A DNA stretch of 60,784 nucleotides, the filler included, from Circinaria calcarea (taxonomy: Eukaryota), in NCBI GenBank assembly GCA_051942165.1. It is 14 parts of 14 records of this genome, joined end to end, with 100 filler letters (N's around TTAATTAATTAA, not from the genome) between each part and the next. Parts side by side here need not be neighbours in the genome. Positions count along the whole stretch, not along the records: positions 17,482 to 21,743 come from JAVECS010002391.1; 13 more parts are not named here. The stretch is one strand, 5' to 3'. The translations under genes and the position numbers were made by a program. Position 1 is the stretch's first letter; each line of letters starts with the position of its first letter. This document shows positions 4,275 through 59,014 of this stretch, piece by piece. The notes under the pieces are model-generated. The model was given only the letters and a program-made list of their open reading frames with translations, made no database searches and was not told the DNA's origin.

Positions 4275-4374
4275 NNNNNNNNNNNNNNNNNNNNNNNNNN
4301 NNNNNNNNNNNNNNNNNNTTAATTAATTAANNNNNNNNNNNNNNNNNNNNNNNNNNNNNNNNNNNNNNNNNNNN
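4275..4374. other. Artificial contig-joining spacer (44 N + TTAATTAATTAA + 44 N), first of 13
   Basis: Identical 100-nt spacers at 4275, 8646, 13015, 17382, 21744, 26104, 30457, 34798, 39137, 43475, 47812, 52138 and 56462. The linker gives stops in all six frames. Confidence 0.99.
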
Positions 4375-8645: not shown

Positions 8646-8746
8646 NNNNNNNNNNNNNNNNNNNNNNNNNNNNNNNNNNNNNNNNNNNNTTAATTAATTA
8701 ANNNNNNNNNNNNNNNNNNNNNNNNNNNNNNNNNNNNNNNNNNNNC

Positions 8747-17481: not shown

Positions 17482-17599
17482 CCCGATAGATGACGAGGCC
17501 GGCGGTATAGAAAAGAAGCAGCATTGCCAAGAAGATGGCGGTATCGAGGGGGCTGAGCAGCTGGCCCATGTAGGGCTTCAGGCTGGTGCGTATGTCCAT
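17482..17599 (-). CDS. Probable cytochrome P450, N-terminal 39 codons (3'-truncated at the contig edge)
   Basis: MDIRTSLKPYMGQLLSPLDTAIFLAMLLLFYTAGLVIYR: a hydrophobic anchor ending in ...LVIYR, as in fungal P450 starts that precede LxxHPLxxxPGP. The catalytic part is not in the window. Confidence 0.6.
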
Positions 17600-17695
17600 A
17601 CTGCGAGTTCGACGCTCTCCGGACGACCAAAGCTGTATCTCGATCCCGTTGGGTTTACCAAATTGAACACGAAGACGATCGAGTTTTAATCAAGT

Positions 17696-18009
17696 ATCTC
17701 GCGATGCTTACTTTCCCAAGGGAGTCTCCCTGCTTACAACGGGTCATGATGCGCTTTCGAGAGATTCCGGGAAAGGCTCAGCCGTTGACAGAGCATACGC
17801 ATCCCCCTTGGGAGACTTGCAAATCTGGATCAGCCAGTGGAGATGCGGTAATTTCCATCTTACTCTATCAAGGCAAACGGTGGCACAACCTAATCTGTCT
17901 GATAACGAAGCTTATGGTCGATTGGTGTTTCGCTTAGTCAATAACAGAATAAATAATGAAGAGGGTGATAAGCGGCTTACGAGAAATATGTGCGGCGCTT
18001 ACGGGAGAT
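17696..18009 (-). promoter_or_regulatory. Cluster of tox-box-like sites (ATCTCNCGNA) upstream of the P450-like start
   Basis: Perfect matches on the minus strand: ATCTCTCGAA (17756-17765) and ATCTCCCGTA (18000-18009). One-mismatch copies: ATTTCTCGTA (17978-17987, minus) and ATCTCGCGAT (17696-17705, plus). Confidence 0.6.
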
Positions 18010-18343
18010 TTATATTTTAACTTCTAAGTGCTAGTCGCATAATCGGCGGTCCCGAAAAAGGTCAGCCGTGACTGAGAGGAAGATTTCGTATGTGCGACGA
18101 TCGTGCTGTGCGCATGTCCTTGTTGTGTAGATTGTGGCGACCTTAGTAGATCGTGTCTAGGGAAATGGAGACATTGGATAAAGTGTGTTGTACTTGGCTA
18201 TCTGGTGCACCATAATCAACGTTTAATTACTGCGGGTGATGAGCCTATAATTTCCGAGAGTCTATATTTCTATTCCGTTTGTCTAGAGGCTCCTCTCGAG
18301 TTTGAATGCTACCACAACGCATCCTTTACGTCGAGAAAAAAAG

Positions 18344-19418
18344 TCATTTTGCTTCTAGAAGCACTTTGATCACGTCACAATGACCGCCTGCAGCGGCAAG
18401 ATGCAGCGCCGTGTATCCCCGGGCATCACCGGCGTCAACTGGAATGTCAGAACTGTCCAATAATAGTCGCACAACGGAAAGGTCGCCTCTCTCAGCCGCA
18501 ATATGTAGGGCGGTCTGGCCTAGATTATTAATCGCCGCGAGTCCTGTGCCTTTGCTCTCGGGGGTGGTGGGTGTTGTTTCAGTGACAGCTTCAGTAACGG
18601 CAAGATTCAGACCTGTGAGATGTTCTGGCTCCATCTCAATTGGCTCCATCTCAACTGGCTCCGTCTCACAAGAAGTCCAGTGTGTCTGGAAATTCATATC
18701 CAAGGCAAAGGATGTAGGCTCCAGAAATCCAAGTGTCTATCAACATATTAGAATCCAGCTCGGCGTATTCGAGAACTGTGAAGCGGGAGAAAACGCACCT
18801 GATCCGTAGAAGCCATATTTTCCCATTCGGCAGTCTGACTGGGGTCATCGGAAACGTTGACCTGGCTCTGGTTCAAAGGACACGACGGACTGAATGAGAA
18901 GGTTTGTCTCGCTGGTGCAGCCCAAGATCCCTCGACTAACTGCTCAAAATCACAGTCTCCCTCTTCGGGATCCTGGATGATGCTATGATCATAACCCTGA
19001 CCAGACGGGTCCAAGAAGCGCGAGCATGCGGAGTAATTCGATGTAGCGTGATCGCTTTTATCAGGGACCAAAGCAGACTCTAGCTCGTCAAGACCGTCTT
19101 GGGAAAATCTCTCGATAGACATGGGCTGTCTGGAGCAGATGGGGGAGGGGGAGGGTTTAACGTGTTGCAGACTCAACTCCCTGCTGAGCCTTGGTGGATC
19201 TTGGCTACTAGATGAGGCCAGAGTGCTGGTCAGCTCCTCCAGAGCCAGCAGGCGGTTCTTGATACCTTGACCTTGCTGGTGTGAGCTACCGATACGCATT
19301 GAGAGCCTTGAAAAAGTTCACACTGACGGTACTTCTTCTGAGCCACACGATTTTGCTCTTTCCTTCGCTTAGATACGCTCGAAGGGTGCTGAGGGCCGGG
19401 CTCTAGGCGTTCGGCCAT
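18344..19418 (-). CDS. bZIP-basic-region plus ankyrin-repeat (bANK, TOXE-like) transcription factor, about 318 aa
   Basis: Exons 19418-19328, 19271-18799 and 18736-18344. Basic region SKRRKEQNRVAQKKYRQGIKNRLLALEEL. C-terminal ankyrin repeats GQTALHIAAERGDLSVVRLLL and GYTALHLAAAGGHCDVIKVLL. Confidence 0.88.
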
Positions 19419-20832
19419 GCTCAAGGTTCAATAAAGGACCTGCTGATCGCGATGCGTGGTTCCAGCCACCCCGCCAACGGGACGGTAGGATCCTCTTCAC
19501 TTATATGGCAGCACCGGACGGTCCTCCAAGAAGATGTGAGACAACGGTAGTTGAAGAAATAGGCGTTGCGTATTTAATTATGGGGGACGGTACTGAGTCC
19601 CAGATCGATTGGGGCGACTATCGAGGTTCCGGGCATGATCGGTAGGGGAAATTTTACACTATCATCTGTAGATTTTCCTTCGCTGGATGGACGAAGGATT
19701 CTCAACGGTCAATGCAGATGAGATGAATTGGGACTTTGAGTGAGAGGTGTACAAGTGGCATAGTGAAGATGCATGCAACGATCAAACAACGAATCCAATG
19801 TCCAGGTGAAGATGATTTGTTACCCATGCCGCAGAAGCTTTAGAACATACATAGTATAGTGGCCCGAAGCTGGCCAGGTAGCTACTGCCCGCATGCGCCG
19901 AAGGAGGAAGAGCGCCCGAGTTAGGATGCTTACGAAAGACTTTCAGTGGCGATTGAGAGGTTGCCAGCTCGAAAATGATAGCGGGTCCCCCGATGGTTTA
20001 TGTACCATTCGAGCGCTTCCTCAATCTTGAACTCCCAGACACTTGCTGCGACTACACGGTGTAGCATAGCAGCCTCTAGCTTCACCCTCTTTCAGTTTAT
20101 CTTGCCATGTAACGACGAATATACATTTCTTCTATCGCCATACGCGATGCCCTACCGCCTACTGCTACTATAGCCCGGCTAGCGCCCCTATGCCGGCTTC
20201 CGATATGCAATGCTACTATCTATTAGAATCACTTCCCGAAGATATCACTTGCTAGTTTGGTAACGCAATCACCACATGATTCCGGAAGTTATATATTATC
20301 CCATTAAGGGTATTGACTCTCAACGGACAGCATAAGATAGGCGCGGGCATGATCATTGGTAGCAAAAGTGTATGGCGCCTTTTCCGGGCCATGCCTACCT
20401 TATTTTTGGGACATGAGCGGGAGGAGGACTATCCTCCGGATGTAAACTGTTGCTGAGTGTCGAATCCCCCGCCCATTCTCCGACTAGAAACACGAATCCC
20501 ACATGTCGCCATTTGAGCTCGTAGTCACCCATGAGGTCGCTGCAACATTACAGACGTATGCCGTTGTGGCACGAGGCCTGTTGCCCTTCCAAACGGGTCC
20601 CGTGGAGCCCGGTTCGCCAACGAGATATCGTCGTGCCATCCTCGAGAGGTCTCCCCACTTTGTGCCTGTGCCAGCTCCAGCTTACTTCCTATTTCCGCGC
20701 ATACCCTGGCTGCACGCTATAATAGTGTCCGCATAGCCCTCGACTAGAAGACACGCTTGAATGATCCGCAATGCACACCCTGGCTTGCATGATATAATGG
20801 TGCCCGCACACGCTATAGTAGTGCCCGTGTTG

Positions 20833-21663
20833 CCCCCGGGGTCTCAGGGGGGGTCGTCGCTTAGCACGGGGGGGGTCGTCCGGTATTTTTGTCGATCCGA
20901 GTATTACCCGAAACCAGAATTTATAATTAAGCGTAATTCACTGCTCCGGGCTTATGCCTTCTATCTATAGAGGCTACGCTTGCCGAACGCTCGCGCCTTG
21001 TGCCCCGGCCTCCGCTAAACATTGATATAGTTGAAAATAGTACAGTGAGTGCTACTACACGACCTGTTGGTGGAACCACTATTGCCACTATTGCATTGAA
21101 GGTTGTCTAACTAGCTACGCAATGTGGGCGAGATATATACTCGCCCACTACTATGGTATTCCCTATTGGGTGTTGTCTATAGCAACTCGCTAGTAAGGTA
21201 GAATGCACCGTATTTTAACTGATATACTTATATCTCTGCCTTTGCTTAATATTTATATATTTTATGAAAACGAAGGTAGAAATAGGGGTATGGTAATCCT
21301 GATATAATATATTCCGCACAAAATAGTACTGAATATATTCTGAATATATTCCGTTTTTTCCACAAAACTGACTTATAACCCTCTATCGTAGTGCGCGCTC
21401 CGTGTATTATAGCTAAAATCTATACCTTTCGTGCCTTTCGTGCTTTGGGAATGCGCCGAATTAGCCAATTAGCCTTCTATATTTAGCATATCCTTTCGAA
21501 TTTACGTTATTTATATACTAATTCGAGCCGGTCCTAACACTCAGGGCGAATTGCGCCTGGCTTAAAACGAATACGCCTAGTTTTTATTATATACCGGGGC
21601 GAAATTTAGATACCGGACGGCCCCCCCCCGGAAAGCTTGGCGACCCCCCCTAAGACTCGGGGG
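20833..21663. mobile_element. Non-autonomous TIR element (~830 bp), degenerate
   Basis: ~54-bp imperfect TIRs: CCCCCGGGGTCTCAGGGGGGGTCGTC...GGGGGGGGTCGTCCGGTAT versus the reverse complement of 21610-21663 (CCCCCGAGTCTTAGGGGGGGTCGCC...GGGGGGGGCCGTCCGGTAT). AT/TpA-rich noncoding interior; TG on both flanks. Confidence 0.65.
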
Positions 21664-21844
21664 TGAAAGAAGAATCTAGATGCGCCTTGAGAACAAGGCT
21701 ATCTCCATATGCTGAATCAGTAAGCGCTTGGGCTACTTAATATNNNNNNNNNNNNNNNNNNNNNNNNNNNNNNNNNNNNNNNNNNNNTTAATTAATTAAN
21801 NNNNNNNNNNNNNNNNNNNNNNNNNNNNNNNNNNNNNNNNNNNG

Positions 21845-40124: not shown

Positions 40125-40893
40125 TCGGTCTTGACGACTGTATTTTGCCAGCAGAAAGTCGAATTCCCCAAGATATTCTGTGCATCCTGGTTTGGACTTC
40201 TTACGGATGTTTATTTTGCTGCCATTAGGATAATGATGGGAAAGCGACATATGGGAAGCATGAAAAGGGAGTTTTTGATGACATTTATGCGGCTTGCGGA
40301 TACCCCACTGTGTGTTTCAATTTGGGCTGTGACAGAAACAGTCATTACACTGGCAGCGCCTGGAGCGTTAGAGGGAGGAAAGTCCTCGCGGACTAAGATG
40401 GAGTTACAGCGTGAGCGGAGGATGTCACATTCCCTCCTGATTGCAATCAGTGCATACGACCAGTATTGCTCATTGGGAAACTACCTTTGGAACAGCCCTT
40501 GTTGGCTAGATACTTGTATATAGTCCGCCCTTCGCCTTGGCGACAGTGGCTTGATGGATATGTAATACTATTTATTACCCTCACATTCGAGAAGCCTTTT
40601 CCAATTGATATCTGCGATTTCTCGGTGACCGTCTGTTTCTAATGTTAACCGGTAGCATTGAGATTCCTACCGTAGTCGTAAGTCTGCTCCTCTCCCACAC
40701 TACGGAGTATCGCTGCATGTTCGAAGAATTGTGCGAGAAGTAAGTTTTGTCCTATCGGTCGTATCGGCTACCTCCGCTTTCCTCTTCGCAACAAGAATAC
40801 TATTCTAGTAGGTTCGGTCCAAAGATACATCTCAATGTCTGCTCACTCATCGATTGACTGTGTTCCTGTCAACTTCTGGCTTTGGGTACCGCC

Positions 40894-43474
40894 ATGATTT
40901 GTGGCGTTGATACTGCGGACATGGGCAAATCGAAGAACCCGCAGCTGGAACCTCTGTCTAGCCATGCATATAATGAAAAAGTCAATGAGCTCAGGAAAGA
41001 AGAATATCCCATGCTCAGCGGTATGAAGAGTCTCTATTGGAATCAATGTTATGTTGCTGATTTTGACGAGTATCCAGGGACAGTCTATCTTGATCATGCT
41101 GGCGCGACCCTCTATGCGAGGTCTCTCATCGAGAAATTTTCCAAGGATATGATGTCTAACCTGATGGGTAATCCTCATTCGGCATCTTCTTCATCCCAGC
41201 TCTCTAGTCGACTGATCGAGAATGTCCGGATTCGAGTCCTTGAGCTTTTCAATGCCGACCCGGCTCATTTTGACGTAGTCTTTGTGGCAAATGCAACGGC
41301 TGGGATTAAGCTGGTAATGGAGTCGTTTAGAGAGATCCCGAACGGTTTTTGGTACGGCTACCACGAGGATGCGCATACCAGCCTTGTCGGCGTTCGCGAG
41401 GCTGCCATGGCCGGACATAGATGCTTCCAGTCTACAGAAGTCGAGAGATGGCTAGATGGGCAAGACGCTCACAATGTCGGATTAAACGAATCGACACTGG
41501 GTCTCTTTGCATACCCTGCTCAATCCAACATGAATGGAAGCCGCTTACCACTTGAATGGCCGGGTCGGCTCCGGAAGTCGGGCGTGGAGTCACATCGTCG
41601 TGTTTACAGCCTTCTTGACGCTGCTGCACTAGTTTCCACATGTCCACTCGATCTCAGCAATGTCTCCCAGGCCCCGGATTTTACTGTGCTGAGTGTAAAC
41701 AAAATCTTTGGCTTCCCTGACTTGGGTACTCTGATTGCCCGGAAAGAGTCCAGTCACATTCTCGGAAAACGCAGATACTTTGGCGGTGGAACCGTGGAGA
41801 TGGTGACTTGTAGAGAAGAACAATGGCATGTCAGGAAAGAGGACAGTCTACATGAGCAGTTGGAAGATGGGACTCTTCCTGTTCATAGCATTCTCGCACT
41901 GGATAGTGCTATTGATGTACATCGCCATCTCTTTGGGACTCTCGCACAGATCTCCTCGCATACCTCATCTCTTGCAAAGCAGCTCTATGACGGTCTCACG
42001 TCGTTACGCCACGGCAATGGAGGTGCTCTTTGTACAATATATCAGAACGCCGGAGCCTCCTTTGACGACAGCCGATCTCAAGGTCCGGTCGTTGCATTTA
42101 ATCTCCGGAACAGCCAAGGTATGTGGGCGAACAATTCCGAGGTCGAGAAGCTTGCAGCAGTTAAGAACATCCATTTTCGAAGCGGTGGTTTGTGCAATCC
42201 GGGGGGGATCGCGTCCGCGTTGGGTTTAAGTCCTTGGGAAATGAAACGGAATTTCTCAGCAGGACAGAGGTGTGGGAACGAACGTGATGTTATGAATGGA
42301 AAACCAACAGGCATGATTAGAGTCAGCTTGGGAGCAATGAGCACAATGCAGGACGTTACAGCTTTCTTGGACTTTCTGAGGGAATTCTTTGTTGATAAAG
42401 CAACTTCGGGTCAAGAAGCAGTACCTGATGTACTGCCGCTTCCCGGATTATGTATCGAATCATTAATGGTATTCCCGATCAAGAGCTGTGCTGGTTGGAG
42501 TGTTCCACACGACATGGTCTGGGATATCAAACCTGAAGGTCTGGCTTGGGATAGGGAATGGTGCCTCGTCCACCAAGGTAGTCGAGCCGCTCTAAGCCAG
42601 AAACGTTACCCTAAGATGGCTCTGCTGAAGCCGAGCCTCGACTTTGATAAGGGCGTCTTGCGTGTACGGTATCACGACACTGTCTTCCCATCTACCCCTT
42701 CCGAAATCACCGTTCCCCTGTCCTCGAACCCAACCCACTTCCATAGTTTCACCGACTCGAGCAAACACCCGACCTCGCGGGTGTGTGGCGACACCGTCAG
42801 CGCCCAAACGTATGCGTCACCCACCATCACCACCTTTTTCACGGATATCCTCGGCGTACCGTGCTACCTCGCCCGGTTCCCTCCCTCGGGCTCCGCACCC
42901 TCAACCCGACACGCCAAAGCCCAGCTCCAGAAACATCAACCGTCTCCACGGTCCCAAACCATGCCCGGCTCGTTTCCCCAACCCCCCGCACCGCTTCGCC
43001 ACCCAATCCTCCTCGCCAACGAGTCCCCCATCCTCGCCATCTCCCGCTCCAGCCTCAACCGCCTAAACGAACAGATCAAATCCCAATCCCCCTCCGGCAA
43101 AGCCACCTCGGCCGACGTCTTCCGCGCCAACATCATCATCGCCCACGATCCCTCGTCGCCCCCCGGGATCGAACAGCCTTACGTCGAAGACTCGTGGCGG
43201 TACGTGACCACGCAGAGCCGGGATCCCGCCAGGGAAGACGGAGGAGAATCACCACGCGGGGCGGGGACCGTGCTGGAAGTGCTCGGCGCTTGCCGGAGGT
43301 GCCAGATGGTGTGTGTGGACCAGCAGACGGGCGAGAGGAACGAAGAGCCGTTTGTGACGCTGGCGAAGACGAGAAGGGTGGACGGGCAGGTGGTTTTTGG
43401 GGTGCACATGGGGTTGAAGGGTGGGAGTGGGAGTGGGAAAGTCAAGGTCGGGGATCGGGTTTTGGGGTTTAGGG
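40894..43474 (+). CDS. hxB: Molybdenum cofactor sulfurase, 3' end just truncated
   Basis: Aminotransferase class V domain (VYLDHAGATLY, HTSLVGVRE, LLDAAA, NKIFGFPDLG, RSGGLCNPGG) plus MOSC_N (FPIKSC, WDREWCLV) and MOSC (FRANII, CRRCQMVCVDQ). In-frame 57-nt intron at 41021-41077. Start codon could be 40894 or 40921. Confidence 0.95.
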
Positions 43475-49674: not shown

Positions 49675-52137
49675 TTATTCACATTGTGCCCCATTTGCCC
49701 TTTGTTCAAATTGATCGACGATGCCCATCGTCCACATAGTATGTCTGTGGTCTGGACCTAGCAGGTTAATCTGGCCACGCAGTGCTTTTCGCTGTAACAC
49801 CATCGCTGGCTCGGTTTCCCCCATTTCCTCCAGGACGACACCCAAATTGTTCATTGCCCACAGAGTGTCCGCATGGCTGAGCCCAAGTACTTCCACCCGA
49901 CCGTCCAATGCTTTCTCGTACAACTCAGCAGAATCTTTCAATCTTCCTTGCTGCCGATAGCATGCGGCCATGTCCATCATAGTCCAGAGAGTATGAGGAT
50001 GGGTTTCACCTAGCACTTTCCTTCGGATAGCCAAAGCTTCATTGTGTAAGCCAACCGCTTCGCCAAGTCTGTCTTGCTTTCGATAAGTTCGAGCTAAAGT
50101 GTTGAGAGTCCATACAATCTGCAGATCATCAGGATGAAGGATCACGCGGAGCTTATGAAGAGCTTTGAGATGCATGCATTCTGCCTTTTCAAAATGACCG
50201 AGGTGCCGATACACACGCCCTAGCTCGTTGATAGTCCAGATTGTCTCCAGGTGGTCAGTTCCAAGGCTGGACTCTTGGATGGCAAGTGCTTTCTCTTGCG
50301 TAAGGGCTGACAACTCGACTCTTTGCTGTTGATCGTAAATAATGCCTAAACTGTTCATCAGCCAAACAGTTGAGATGTGGTCTGCGTCAAATCGACGCCG
50401 CTGCGAATCCAAAGCGTCAGTAAGCCATCTCTCACACTCTGTTAACTTTCCACTCATGGCACACTCTCGTGACAGGTCTCTTATTACCGTTAATTTCTCA
50501 AAGTAGGAGATCTTTGGTATTCTGCTACTCAGGAACTCAGGATGCGACTGGTGATCTTCGTAGACATTACTATCGCTCAGAAGTATCTCTTGTATATCCT
50601 GGATCCAATTAACCAGATGGTCCGGAATCTGACTGCTGGGGCCTTGTGCGATCCAATTTTTCAACAGGCTTTGCTGCTTTAAAAGGAACTGTAATGGAAA
50701 TATAGACCATTGCCAGAACAAAAATCTCAAAATCCACCCTCGGCGGCAAAGTTGCGGTGAGAGAAATTCAGTAATCTTTTGCTCAAGGGTCGAATCGTTG
50801 ACGGAGCTGCTCAGATGATGGCACCAGAATAGTGTTGCGTACTCAAGGAGAGGGTACGCCTCAGTAGAAGTGTGCACCGGATCCTGAGTATTGTGCCAGG
50901 ATTGGTATGCGAGGCATACCTGGACAATCTCATGGTGTCCCTGCTGTTCCTGGATGAAAAAATGGGAAGCTATTTGTTCCACTTGATAGTCGGCTTGACT
51001 GAGGAGGAATTCGCGAACCGACAAGTGCACAGGCCGAAACAGGTCGTCGGCGGGGAAATATTCAATCAGCGAACTGCAAAGCTCTAGAATTGTAGCTTTA
51101 AATGGCTTCTTCGACTCAACCATTCGTGCTTGAAATTGTTCAAAAGCTAGGATAGTTTCCAACTCGTTCCAATGCAGTGGCCGAGCTGCGCAACATATCC
51201 ATAGAAGGATCCGTCTCGTAATTAAGCGTCTTCTCGGTGGCTCCTTGGCAAGTTTGTTTAGAATGGAAGAGTAAATGACGTCGATTCCTATAGGAAGTTC
51301 ATGGAGAAGCTCAATTATTTCATGAGAGCAGGTAGCTGACTTTAGCGTTTTGATCATGAGACTAGCCCACAGAAACATACCGTTGGCGGTATGAGACAAC
51401 TTAGTGAATACCTGATCTCGTAATCCAGAATCCTCTAATGGCAAATCCGCTAACTGCTTAGATATATAATTGTCGATATCTATGCTCATAACAGCTGACG
51501 TTAGGGCAATTCTAGATAAGCCGCTTAATCGATTACTCAAGTTTGGATTATCTCGACTGAGAAGGATAAGTTGAGCATTTGCAGTATCATTAACGAGTTC
51601 TTTGAACAACTCTGACATATTGAGAGAGTCTTCTAGCTCGTCGAGACCATCAACAACAATGAAAGCCTTCTCCAGTGGACGAATTAGGTCTTTCAAAATA
51701 GCCATTGGCTGATCGGCTGATGATACTTTCGATCTTCCGTATCTTCCTGCAACACTGAACGCAGCGGAGATGCGGTCAGGAATATCGTCCAATTGGGAAA
51801 GAATCTGTGCAATGACGCTGGCAAGAGTTGTGGTTACTGATAGATTGTTCTCCTCTGCTTTCTCACAATAAAGGAATGCGGAAACACATCGCGGGTCATC
51901 AGTTACATATTCTCTGATCTTATGATTGATAGTAGTGCTTAGAACAGTCTTCCCACACCCAGGAGGTCCAGTGATCCAAATAGCACGAGGCTGGAAAGAT
52001 TGCAACCACGATTGGAAGGCTCTATTGCATAGTAGCCACTGGCCGCACGGCTGAGACCGTCGTTGTGACTCTCGGATGAAAGTTGCCTCCATTTCAGCAG
52101 GTGAAAGCCAACGCATAATTTCGCGTCGCTCATTTTT
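49675..52137 (-). CDS. Fungal NLR-like protein: NACHT + winged helix + TPR repeats, 5'-truncated
   Basis: Walker A GPPGCGKT, Walker B FIVVDGLDE, ANGMFLWA, ARPLHWNEL, HLSVREFL, about six 42-aa TPR-like repeats. Frame open to the contig edge. Confidence 0.92.
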   Translation of the reverse strand, partial: KNERREIMRWLSPAEMEATFIRESQRRSQPCGQWLLCNRAFQSWLQSFQPRAIWITGPPGCGKTVLSTTINHKIREYVTDDPRCVSAFLYCEKAEENNLSVTTTLASVIAQILSQLDDIPDRISAAFSVAGRYGRSKVSSADQPMAILKDLIRPLEKAFIVVDGLDELEDSLNMSELFKELVNDTANAQLILLSRDNPNLSNRLSGLSRIALTSAVMSIDIDNYISKQLADLPLEDSGLRDQVFTKLSHTANGMFLWASLMIKTLKSATCSHEIIELLHELPIGIDVIYSSILNKLAKEPPRRRLITRRILLWICCAARPLHWNELETILAFEQFQARMVESKKPFKATILELCSSLIEYFPADDLFRPVHLSVREFLLSQADYQVEQIASHFFIQEQQGHHEIVQVCLAYQSWHNTQDPVHTSTEAYPLLEYATLFWCHHLSSSVNDSTLEQKITEFLSPQLCRRGWILRFLFWQWSIFPLQFLLKQQSLLKNWIAQGPSSQIPDHLVNWIQDIQEILLSDSNVYEDHQSHPEFLSSRIPKISYFEKLTVIRDLSRECAMSGKLTECERWLTDALDSQRRRFDADHISTVWLMNSLGIIYDQQQRVELSALTQEKALAIQESSLGTDHLETIWTINELGRVYRHLGHFEKAECMHLKALHKLRVILHPDDLQIVWTLNTLARTYRKQDRLGEAVGLHNEALAIRRKVLGETHPHTLWTMMDMAACYRQQGRLKDSAELYEKALDGRVEVLGLSHADTLWAMNNLGVVLEEMGETEPAMVLQRKALRGQINLLGPDHRHTMWTMGIVDQFEQRANGAQCE

Positions 52138-56461: not shown

Positions 56462-56561
56462 NNNNNNNNNNNNNNNNNNNNNNNNNNNNNNNNNNNNNNN
56501 NNNNNTTAATTAATTAANNNNNNNNNNNNNNNNNNNNNNNNNNNNNNNNNNNNNNNNNNNN

Positions 56562-57188: not shown

Positions 57189-57565
57189 AACGAAGCTGCC
57201 AACATTGACAGGTCAAGACCACCGTTGCTGATCCACCATGAGGACTCGATGAACGTCAGCGTTGGACAGAGCCAGTTTGAAGTGTCGCCGAGTATACAAG
57301 CAACTCTAAGTTTGCGGAAGATGCGGAAACAGTCTGAATGCAGTGTTGCGTAAGAGGGATGCCGTGTTCAACACGGTTGTCTTATGTCGCACCTCTGACC
57401 GGACAATCGACGCTACATAAGGCGCCCATATTTAGCCTCATCGGAGCCATATTACTCCGACTAGGCTGAAACCACAGAGTAACTCCAGTTCTAAGCTTTT
57501 TCCTTCCCGCCGTCTGCTTCGTCCCCTGCACGTTTCAAGACGACTTCAGGCCAAGCCGCCCAAGC

Positions 57566-59014
57566 ATGTCGGACTCTGGTCCTCAATCGTGGATGAATGG
57601 GTCAGACGAAGGTGATGGTGTCGTTGATCAGCTTCTGTTCGCAAACCGTGTCACCTCGAGCTCTCGGAGCCCTCAAGGTCGACGGCTGCCACCGCATTCT
57701 TTCAGGCGTCGACTCCCATTTACCATGCGACCGGCACCACCACCAGAGTTACAACCTGAAGCTCTCTCAATCCCTAGTGCTCTGAACCGTGTTGATTTCC
57801 AAGATCTCGAATATGTTGAGGGATACGATGAGAACCTCATGTGTGCCATCTGCCACTGCCCGTTCGTTAGCCCAGTCAGACTGGACTGCGATCACGTCTT
57901 CTGCCAAAGTTGTGTCCATCGTGCCATGGAACATTCAGAGAGCTGCCCTACTTGCAGGAAGAGAAGCACGGAACAACCCGAGGGTGTGCCAGTCCCAAAA
58001 CTCATCCAAAGTATGTTGGATGGATTGTTGGTGAAATGTCCTTTACGTGAAGAAGGCTGCACCGAGACCATGACCAGGGGGTCTGTACAGGACCATATTG
58101 ATCAATATTGTGACTACACGAAGGTTAAATGCCCTTGGGAGCGGTGCACACTAAAAGCGAGGAGGAAGGATGCTAAGAAACTTTGGTGCCAGCATTCAAT
58201 GCTGTCATGTCGAGATTGCCGCCAAGATATCATGGAACGAGATCTTGACTACCACCGCGAAAAGCTATGTGAGCAACGCAAAGCTTCTTGTCCACACTGC
58301 AAGCAAGAGATGCTTCGTCAAGGCATTGACGAGCACATCAATCACTGCCCCGACGCTACATTTCCATGTGATGCAGCTCCATATGGTTGTGACTTCATTG
58401 CAAAGCGAGAGTTGCTCAACCAGCACCTTGCTACATGTCCTCTCCATAAGCTTTCACCCTTTCTGATCAAACAAAAAGCATCTCTCGAAGCCCACGATCT
58501 TGCACTGCAGCATCTTACGCGCAAGAACACTCTCATGCAGCAGTCGCTCGCAAATATCCAAGAGGTCCTTTCCACCGACCTCGTCAATATGTCATCACCG
58601 TCAGGTCGTCCGGTGGAATCCGCCCCCTTTGATTCCACCGCCGCACATCTTCTGTCACTTCACGAATCCCTTCGTACAGAGGTCGAGCGAGTGTCTTCGG
58701 CCGTCTCCGAGCTTGACGCAAGGGCTAACGTGATGATGATGAATGAGAGCCTCCGTAATAAGAAGGACGTTGCCCACACTAACGCTGCTCTGAGTAATGT
58801 GCGAATGCAACTGCACTGGTTGATGAGTGCAAAGTTGCAAAGCCAGCAAAGAGCGGGAATTATCCATTCACATGGTAGCTCCAGTGAGGCTGCATCTTCC
58901 GAACCAAGCGACAGGACTGGTGGTGGTACAGCGGCTGCGAGAGGAGCGACGAATCTACCTGGACAGCCAGTGAGGATGCCTAGTGACTCGACTAGGCAAG
59001 ACACCAAGTTATGA
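57566..59014 (+). CDS. RING finger + TRAF-type zinc-finger protein (putative E3 ubiquitin ligase), 482 aa
   Basis: CAICHCPFVSPVRLDCDHVFCQSC...CPTC (C3HC4 RING), several TRAF-like fingers, C-terminal coiled coil. Single exon. Confidence 0.85.
   Translation: MSDSGPQSWMNGSDEGDGVVDQLLFANRVTSSSRSPQGRRLPPHSFRRRLPFTMRPAPPPELQPEALSIPSALNRVDFQDLEYVEGYDENLMCAICHCPFVSPVRLDCDHVFCQSCVHRAMEHSESCPTCRKRSTEQPEGVPVPKLIQSMLDGLLVKCPLREEGCTETMTRGSVQDHIDQYCDYTKVKCPWERCTLKARRKDAKKLWCQHSMLSCRDCRQDIMERDLDYHREKLCEQRKASCPHCKQEMLRQGIDEHINHCPDATFPCDAAPYGCDFIAKRELLNQHLATCPLHKLSPFLIKQKASLEAHDLALQHLTRKNTLMQQSLANIQEVLSTDLVNMSSPSGRPVESAPFDSTAAHLLSLHESLRTEVERVSSAVSELDARANVMMMNESLRNKKDVAHTNAALSNVRMQLHWLMSAKLQSQQRAGIIHSHGSSSEAASSEPSDRTGGGTAAARGATNLPGQPVRMPSDSTRQDTKL

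Follow-up and report, generated by a model that had tools for sequence, protein, structure and literature searches.

A predicted bANK-type regulator gene and a P450 gene with tox-box motifs in its promoter suggest the edge of a regulated natural-product gene cluster in Circinaria calcarea

We describe a locus from Circinaria calcarea, a lichen-forming fungus (Lecanoromycetes, family Megasporaceae in a taxonomy look-up), at which a predicted regulator gene of the bANK type, encoding a basic region and ankyrin repeats, lies upstream of the start of a cytochrome P450 gene. The spacer between the two genes carries two perfect copies of the tox-box, the DNA site of the HC-toxin regulator TOXE, which is the best studied of this rare regulator type. 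The pairing of a bANK-type gene with a P450 gene that has tox-boxes in its promoter suggests the edge of a regulated natural-product gene cluster. The explanation that we consider best overall, at a probability of about one half, is that the bANK factor binds the boxes and activates the P450 gene together with a secondary-metabolite cluster that continues beyond the contig.

The locus comes from a window of 60,784 nucleotides (nt; the whole stretch of DNA analysed), in which 14 separate contigs of 4223-4274 bp stand in descending order of size with 100-nt runs of N between them. Each of the 13 linkers (4275-4374, 8646-8745 and so on to 56462-56561) has a central TTAATTAATTAA with stops in all six frames, and synteny across these N linkers is meaningless. 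The regulator and P450 genes occupy the left end of the fifth part (positions 17483-21743, 4262 bp), a contig of the C. calcarea metagenome-assembled genome (MAG). An artificial linker ends with the N at position 17482, so the sequence left of this position belongs to an unrelated contig. Regulator, P450 start and tox-box copies A-C (described below) are all on the minus strand, and copy D is on the plus strand. The gene features are as follows.

19328..19418, minus strand: regulator exon 1, a predicted exon with the start codon and a bZIP-type basic region (NRVAQKKYR)
19272..19327, minus strand: regulator intron 1, predicted, 56 nt (donor GTCAGT, branch-like site CTCAC, acceptor AAG)
18799..19271, minus strand: regulator exon 2, with a short helix following the basic region and then a long stretch without regular structure (low-confidence model)
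18737..18798, minus strand: regulator intron 2, 62 nt, GTGCGT...TAG, equal to the NCBI model
18344..18736 including the TGA stop, minus strand: regulator exon 3, two ankyrin stretches (Pfam) and a tandem repeat of 3 x 15 nt
17483..17599, minus strand: start of the P450 gene, 39 codons with an N-terminal membrane anchor, frame open to the contig end (117 nt)

The regulator gene reads as three exons on the minus strand with an open spliced frame of 957 nt, or 318 amino acids (aa), and the initial annotation's claim of an intact factor of about 318 aa with basic-region and ankyrin parts holds for this frame. Enumeration of GT-AG introns yielded one model that kept both the basic region and an in-frame join to the long second open reading frame (ORF), and this is the model adopted here. 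From the start of exon 2 it is letter-for-letter the NCBI protein P0002 (KAL9114565.1, hypothetical protein Q9187_007450). The public model has 297 aa, starts at an ATG within intron 1 and does not include exon 1; lacking the basic-region exon, the regulator is consequently filed as a plain hypothetical ankyrin protein. Some indirect support for intron 1 is provided by P0121, a 199-aa ORF 82% identical to the regulator, in which the end of exon 1 and exon 2 are read in a single frame, whereas the window has these two stretches in different frames. Judged from the protein letters, this difference implies a 1-nt frame-shifting indel inside the proposed intron, which would be a change of the sort that an intron tolerates.

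The domain content of the predicted protein is unevenly strong. Exon 1 alone (33 residues) matches Pfam bZIP_1 with an E value of 0.0064 and 17 bits, under the gathering score of 27.6 bits. The match covers model positions 7-22 only, which correspond to the basic region, and direct reading finds the N-x7-R signature (NRVAQKKYR) there. No Pfam family matched exon 2. Exon 3 scored above the cut-offs of five Pfam ankyrin families (Ank_4, E 1.2e-16; Ank, E 2.6e-15), with two repeat stretches at the extreme C-terminus and the stop right after the second. Past the junction of exons 1 and 2 the protein has one or two leucine heptads, after which it becomes serine-rich and contains proline; so few heptads before such a stretch indicate that the regulator has no leucine zipper, and Pfam likewise gave no match for a zipper part. 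An AlphaFold2 model of P0002 built on a 3-row alignment (mean predicted local distance difference test score 39.6, predicted template modelling score 0.18) is too poor for a count of the repeats; in this low-confidence model the helix after the junction ends about 20 residues on.

Together, the basic region (in a predicted exon), the absence of a zipper and the C-terminal ankyrin repeats are the features of the bANK class, with a repeat number unlike that of described members. Assigned by architecture alone, the regulator is probably a further member of this known class. The initial annotation had called it TOXE-like: the architecture of basic region plus ankyrins agrees with that label, and the repeat number, two against the four of TOXE, does not. 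Two repeats look genuine rather than the result of truncation, since P0002 and its paralog P0122 (described below) both end just past the second repeat, the C-terminus of P0122 lying 8 residues further than that of the regulator in the alignment.

The downstream gene begins at an ATG at 17599 on the same strand, 744 nt past the regulator's stop codon, where the initial annotation had reported a P450-like start 745 bp downstream. The 39-aa fragment encoded before the contig end has no Pfam match on its own. A HMMER search of 1.84 billion representative proteins returned two with an E value of at most 0.001, P0123 and P0124. P0123 has 99 aa and is 95% identical across all 39 residues of the fragment; it has no Pfam match either. 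P0124 (1651 aa, E 5e-5) was dismissed as a relative, being a low-complexity repeat protein with a compositional match. The other member of the 90% cluster of P0123 is P0125 (KAL9106016.1, Q9187_008622, partial), a 353-aa protein encoded on a 2534-bp contig of the same MAG, whose residues 1-39 are identical to the window fragment. Since the regulator paralogs are just about 50-57% identical, an identical 39-residue N-terminus means the same gene on an overlapping contig and not to a paralog. P0125 matches Pfam p450 (PF00067) with an E value of 1.4e-19 and 70.7 bits against a cut-off of 22.8 bits, and all 39 of its PDB matches at an E value of at most 0.001 are P450s. Cut off by the end of its contig, it reaches model position 330 of the 462 and falls short of the heme-binding cysteine loop. 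By way of P0125, the truncated downstream gene is thus identified as a cytochrome P450 gene, as had been proposed from its first codons.

Other searches with the short fragment were less informative. The best Atlas hits for the fragment and P0123 were unnamed short clusters from Ascomycota in 30 of 30 cases, and the nearest named one was a P450 fragment at 0.81, which serves as a lead only. Their PDB matches were two photosystem entries at an E value of 1.6, taken as noise. A tblastn search with P0123 found no continuation of the P450 gene on the other 13 contigs of the window.

The consensus that the initial annotation gave for the tox-box matches ATCTCNCGNA, which PMC4109984 and PMC3729494 both give as the TOXE site; these two papers and PMC6389888, cited below, are represented here by extracts. 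The site is reported to be functional in either orientation (PMC4109984). Copies in the spacer between the regulator and P450 genes, including the two perfect and two one-mismatch copies first noticed there, are the following.

18231-18240, minus strand: a further one-mismatch tox-box copy in the spacer
core 18000-18009, with flank 17997..18009, minus strand: box B, perfect ATCTCCCGTA with the shared 3' flank (ATCTCCCGTAAGC), 401 nt upstream of the P450 ATG
core 17978-17987, with flank 17975..17987, minus strand: box C, one-mismatch ATTTCTCGTAAGC, oriented like box B and 22 nt downstream of it
core 17756-17765, with flank 17753..17765, minus strand: box A, perfect ATCTCTCGAA at 157 nt before the P450 ATG, its 3' flank (ATCTCTCGAAAGC) agreeing with that of box B
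17696-17705, plus strand: box D, one-mismatch ATCTCGCGAT in the opposite orientation, followed by GCTTAC, 97 nt upstream of the P450 ATG

Boxes A-C have the same sense as both genes and lie 157-401 nt before the P450 ATG and 335-579 nt after the regulator's stop. In the 744-bp spacer, counting both strands, the expected number of perfect tox-boxes is 0.022 under a zero-order model and 0.040 under a first-order Markov model, and two were found; the earlier estimate of about 0.02 chance copies falls at the lower end of this range. The corresponding probability of at least two perfect copies is 3.2e-4 to 7.8e-4 (the expectation is analytic, and the Markov model was trained on the spacer itself). 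Among 916 windows of 744 bp, taken at steps of 50 on the other 13 contigs, none held two or more copies and 15 held at least one.

The resemblance between the copies extends past the 10-bp core, which is the tox-box itself. Boxes A and B also share five 3' bases (AGCGC) and the preceding base, for which the calculated chance is about 1e-3 per flank given both sites. They form the sole pair of 15-mers with at most two mismatches in the spacer, and define an extended element of about 13-16 bp, AATCTCYCGWAAGCGC, of which box C is a looser copy. Searching the whole window for ATCTCNCGNAAGC with at most one mismatch returned four matches, three of which are boxes A, B and C. The complementary strand reads GCGCTTACGGGAGAT at box B and GCGCTTTCGAGAGAT at box A, with a TTAC/TTTC-CG segment in both, and CTTAC is present on the complement of boxes B, C and D. 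We take these CTTAC and TTAC/TTTC-CG segments to correspond to a Yap-type bZIP half-site. These features make the boxes a plausible cis-motif lead.

Upstream of the regulator itself, no perfect or one-mismatch tox-box occurs in the first 1.7 kb. Some 510 nt before the start codon (19928-19940, minus strand) stands an extended box with two mismatches, GTCTTTCGTAAGC, which may be either a weak site of autoregulation or a chance match; the window holds 20 such two-mismatch boxes against 17.3 expected. The P450 promoter also contains a second short repeat, inverted and about 90 nt apart, in which CCCAAGGGAGTCT is paired with TCCCAAGGG within CCCTTGGGAGACT on the other strand; its arms, at 17714-17730 and 17803-17818, lie on either side of box A.

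A comparison with described bANK systems reveals both likenesses and differences. The class is characterized by a basic region without a zipper, and TOXE, Aps2 and Apf2 each have four ankyrin repeats (PMC4109984). TOXE of Cochliobolus carbonum, the founding bANK factor, shares with the Circinaria regulator the N-terminal basic region without zipper and the C-terminal ankyrin repeats, and its site is the one found twice, in perfect form, in the promoter beside the Circinaria gene; besides having twice as many repeats, it comes from a Dothideomycete, whereas the Circinaria regulator comes from a Lecanoromycete. Aps2 and Apf2, from the apicidin and apicidin F clusters of Fusarium, have the same architecture and are pathway-specific activators, but differ in their four repeats and in their candidate site, TGACGTGA in place of the tox-box (PMC4109984). 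Apf2 resembles the Circinaria gene in one further respect: extracts of PMC4109984 describe its own promoter as lacking the Api-box, and the first 1.7 kb upstream of the Circinaria regulator lack the tox-box.

FGM4 of Fusarium graminearum, from the fusaoctaxin fg3_54 cluster, is a bANK-like protein whose overall similarity to TOXE and Aps2 is low; its cluster includes a P450, and the extracts of that paper give no binding motif for it (PMC6389888). It differs from the Circinaria regulator in having three repeats, not two, and in a cluster with two nonribosomal peptide synthetase (NRPS) genes (PMC6389888). The same source refers to bANK-like proteins with 'variable ankyrin-like repeats', and FGM4 shows that the ankyrin number may vary within the class. 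TOXE, Aps2, Apf2 and FGM4 are each tied to a nonribosomal-peptide pathway or cluster (PMC4109984, PMC3729494, PMC6389888). The literature searched yielded no report of a lichen bANK factor and no mention of the tox-box consensus outside the HC-toxin and apicidin papers, the string itself occurring in two of them.

The gene structures and domains, the identity of the P450 and the placing and statistics of the motifs are observed at this locus; from them we infer binding, activation and a cluster as follows. The bANK gene would stand head-to-tail upstream of the P450 gene at the edge of a larger locus. Its product would bind boxes A-C in the P450 promoter and activate the P450 gene, and further secondary-metabolite cluster genes past the contig end would be activated by the same factor. 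Binding would putatively place the basic helix on the (C)TTAC/TTTC-CG half-site of the complementary strand, with help from the ankyrin repeats. The basic region has the AQ...(F/Y)R pattern, presumably Yap-like, that also occurs in Yap/Pap1-type fungal bZIP proteins and in Bap1 of Cladosporium fulvum, itself counted among the bANK factors; unlike the Circinaria regulator, Yap/Pap1 proteins dimerise via a leucine zipper and have no ankyrin repeats. To our knowledge, TOXE is the only bANK factor with a binding-defined DNA site.

A number of observations weigh against this explanation, and the most direct of them concern the boxes. Across the window, perfect tox-boxes number three against 2.18 expected, and 34 of 100 shuffles reach three, which is chance level; the third copy (58480-58489) is on an unlinked contig, within an ORF for a RING/TRAF zinc-finger protein. 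Copies with at most one mismatch number 65 against 50.0 expected. A de novo search for 15-mer pairs with at most two mismatches found at least one in 12 of 30 shuffles (mean 0.67), so that such pairs are not rare and the argument from shared flanks is valid only on condition that the boxes were specified beforehand. A single tandem duplication of 22 bp may account for boxes B and C, which would then not be independent sites, and the motif was picked by a reader who had already seen the regulator. Published bANK work also argues against presuming a conserved recognition code: Apf2 is 31% identical to TOXE and much closer to it, and has a candidate box, TGACGTGA, that its authors noted as differing from the tox-box (PMC4109984). 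Conservation of the tox-box across fungal classes was consequently not to be expected beforehand. These points could all be accommodated if regulator and P450 gene are real and the tox-box matches are coincidental or the sites of another factor, with the bANK factor recognising a different sequence and possibly, possibly not, controlling the P450 gene. We consider this a real possibility, with the odds running against it, given the low probability of two perfect copies in a single pre-specified spacer (3e-4 to 8e-4), the match of the flanks of boxes A and B beyond the core, and the fall of three of four extended matches in 60 kb within the P450 promoter.

Doubts about the cluster and about the regulator itself are of a different kind. 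A single promoter is visible, and because the contig breaks off within the P450 gene, no NRPS, polyketide synthase or other core gene can be seen, nor anything else past the P450 start; P0125 is likewise cut by the end of its contig. Many P450 genes of fungi lie outside clusters, and this one may be a stand-alone enzyme (for example of detoxification or sterol-type metabolism) that has the regulator as a chance neighbour without any cluster. We rate this as unlikely, if by no means far-fetched: it is this P450's own promoter that carries the array of boxes, and all four described factors named above are tied to nonribosomal-peptide pathways or clusters. A further alternative is that the public annotation is correct and the gene encodes a 297-aa ankyrin protein with no DNA-binding region, the basic region being a chance ORF in the 5' leader. 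Exon 1 indeed depends on a Pfam match under the threshold and on a predicted intron whose acceptor is not YAG; the NCBI model begins inside intron 1, the PDB and word-based searches retrieved no relatives of exon 1, and P0122 is likewise annotated without a basic region. We nevertheless regard this as improbable. The bZIP_1 match spans exactly the basic segment (positions 7-22) with its N-x7-R signature; donor, branch-like site and frame-restoring acceptor are all present; the residues after the junction are helical in the low-confidence model; the frame-shifting difference of P0121 falls precisely in the proposed intron; and both Circinaria protein starts look truncated, that of P0122 more so.

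The distribution of relatives counts as a further reservation about control of the P450 gene and a cluster by the bANK factor. A search with residues 1-215 of P0002 (the non-ankyrin part) gave 446 candidates from 5.8 billion proteins, among which this part has just two relatives, P0121 and P0122; it is in this way confined to Circinaria-like assemblies, at three proteins of 446 including itself. The basic exon was also the query of a word search (40 aa, of which 8 were read-through residues), in which no candidate had three words in common with it; this weighs on the same side, and a phmmer search of the PDB with this exon gave 0 matches. The ankyrin exon retrieved 1138 proteins with an E value of at most 0.001, nearly all of them generic ankyrin proteins; the informative one was P0002, its own record (100% identical). 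An Atlas comparison of P0002 returned ankyrin clusters only, with a recognition of 1915 (below the 2300 mark). P0122 (KAL9117806.1) is encoded on a 7335-bp contig of the same MAG, is 49% identical to the regulator by BLASTP and 57% in the alignment, and is thus a paralog. Its annotation also lacks the basic region and begins even further in than P0002, and the annotated N-termini of both Circinaria proteins look truncated.

Two features of the regulator protein are worth recording beside these comparisons. In exon 2, DCDFEQLV followed by SW.AP (P0002 residues ~115-130) is invariant in P0002, P0122 and P0121, within a region that is otherwise poorly conserved and probably disordered; it could be an activation or interaction motif. 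In exon 3, the tandem repeat at 18626-18670 consists of three 15-nt units, the second and third 93% and 80% identical to the first, which encode an acidic five-residue repeat just before the ankyrin part, where P0122 is gapped.

The remainder of the regulator contig is sparse. No ORF longer than 90 aa occurs in the 2.3 kb upstream of the regulator, and the contig has 0 Rfam matches. This upstream DNA holds inverted repeats rich in G/C runs, pairing 20834-20856 with 21641-21663 (87%) and 20868-20886 with 21610-21628 (95%); they enclose about 720 bp of AT-rich DNA without an ORF, and the pair looks like a miniature inverted-repeat transposable element. Other, unlinked contigs of the window encode an ABC transporter fragment (1155-2597), ribosomal protein L4 (5035-6045), a molybdenum-cofactor-sulfurase-like protein (Aminotran_5 + MOSC; 40858-43473), an NACHT/NPHP3-TPR NLR-like protein (49675-52137) and a RING/TRAF zinc-finger protein (57470-59014), and none of these five products is a core biosynthetic enzyme. 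A tRNA scan of the window found 0 genes.

Among fungal pathway regulators, the bANK factors form a small class that is still poorly understood. Lichen fungi are very slow to grow, and most of their clusters are silent or have not been assigned. A regulator whose cis-code can be read would provide a handle for finding regulons in fragmented assemblies and for switching on a pathway in a heterologous host. The locus also illustrates that automatic annotation can miss a short basic-region exon, after which such regulators pass as plain ankyrin proteins. A farther-reaching proposal, which we advance tentatively and hold to be rather doubtful, is that a bANK factor with two ankyrin repeats still uses the tox-box code of TOXE in a lichen-forming Lecanoromycete, and does so in the extended version AATCTCYCGWAAGCGC, which exposes a Yap-type half-site. 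If this is true, bANK regulons could be readable directly from promoter sequence across distant fungal classes, AATCTCYCGWAAGCGC would mark an undescribed lichen natural-product cluster, and the paralogous factor P0122 would mark a second.

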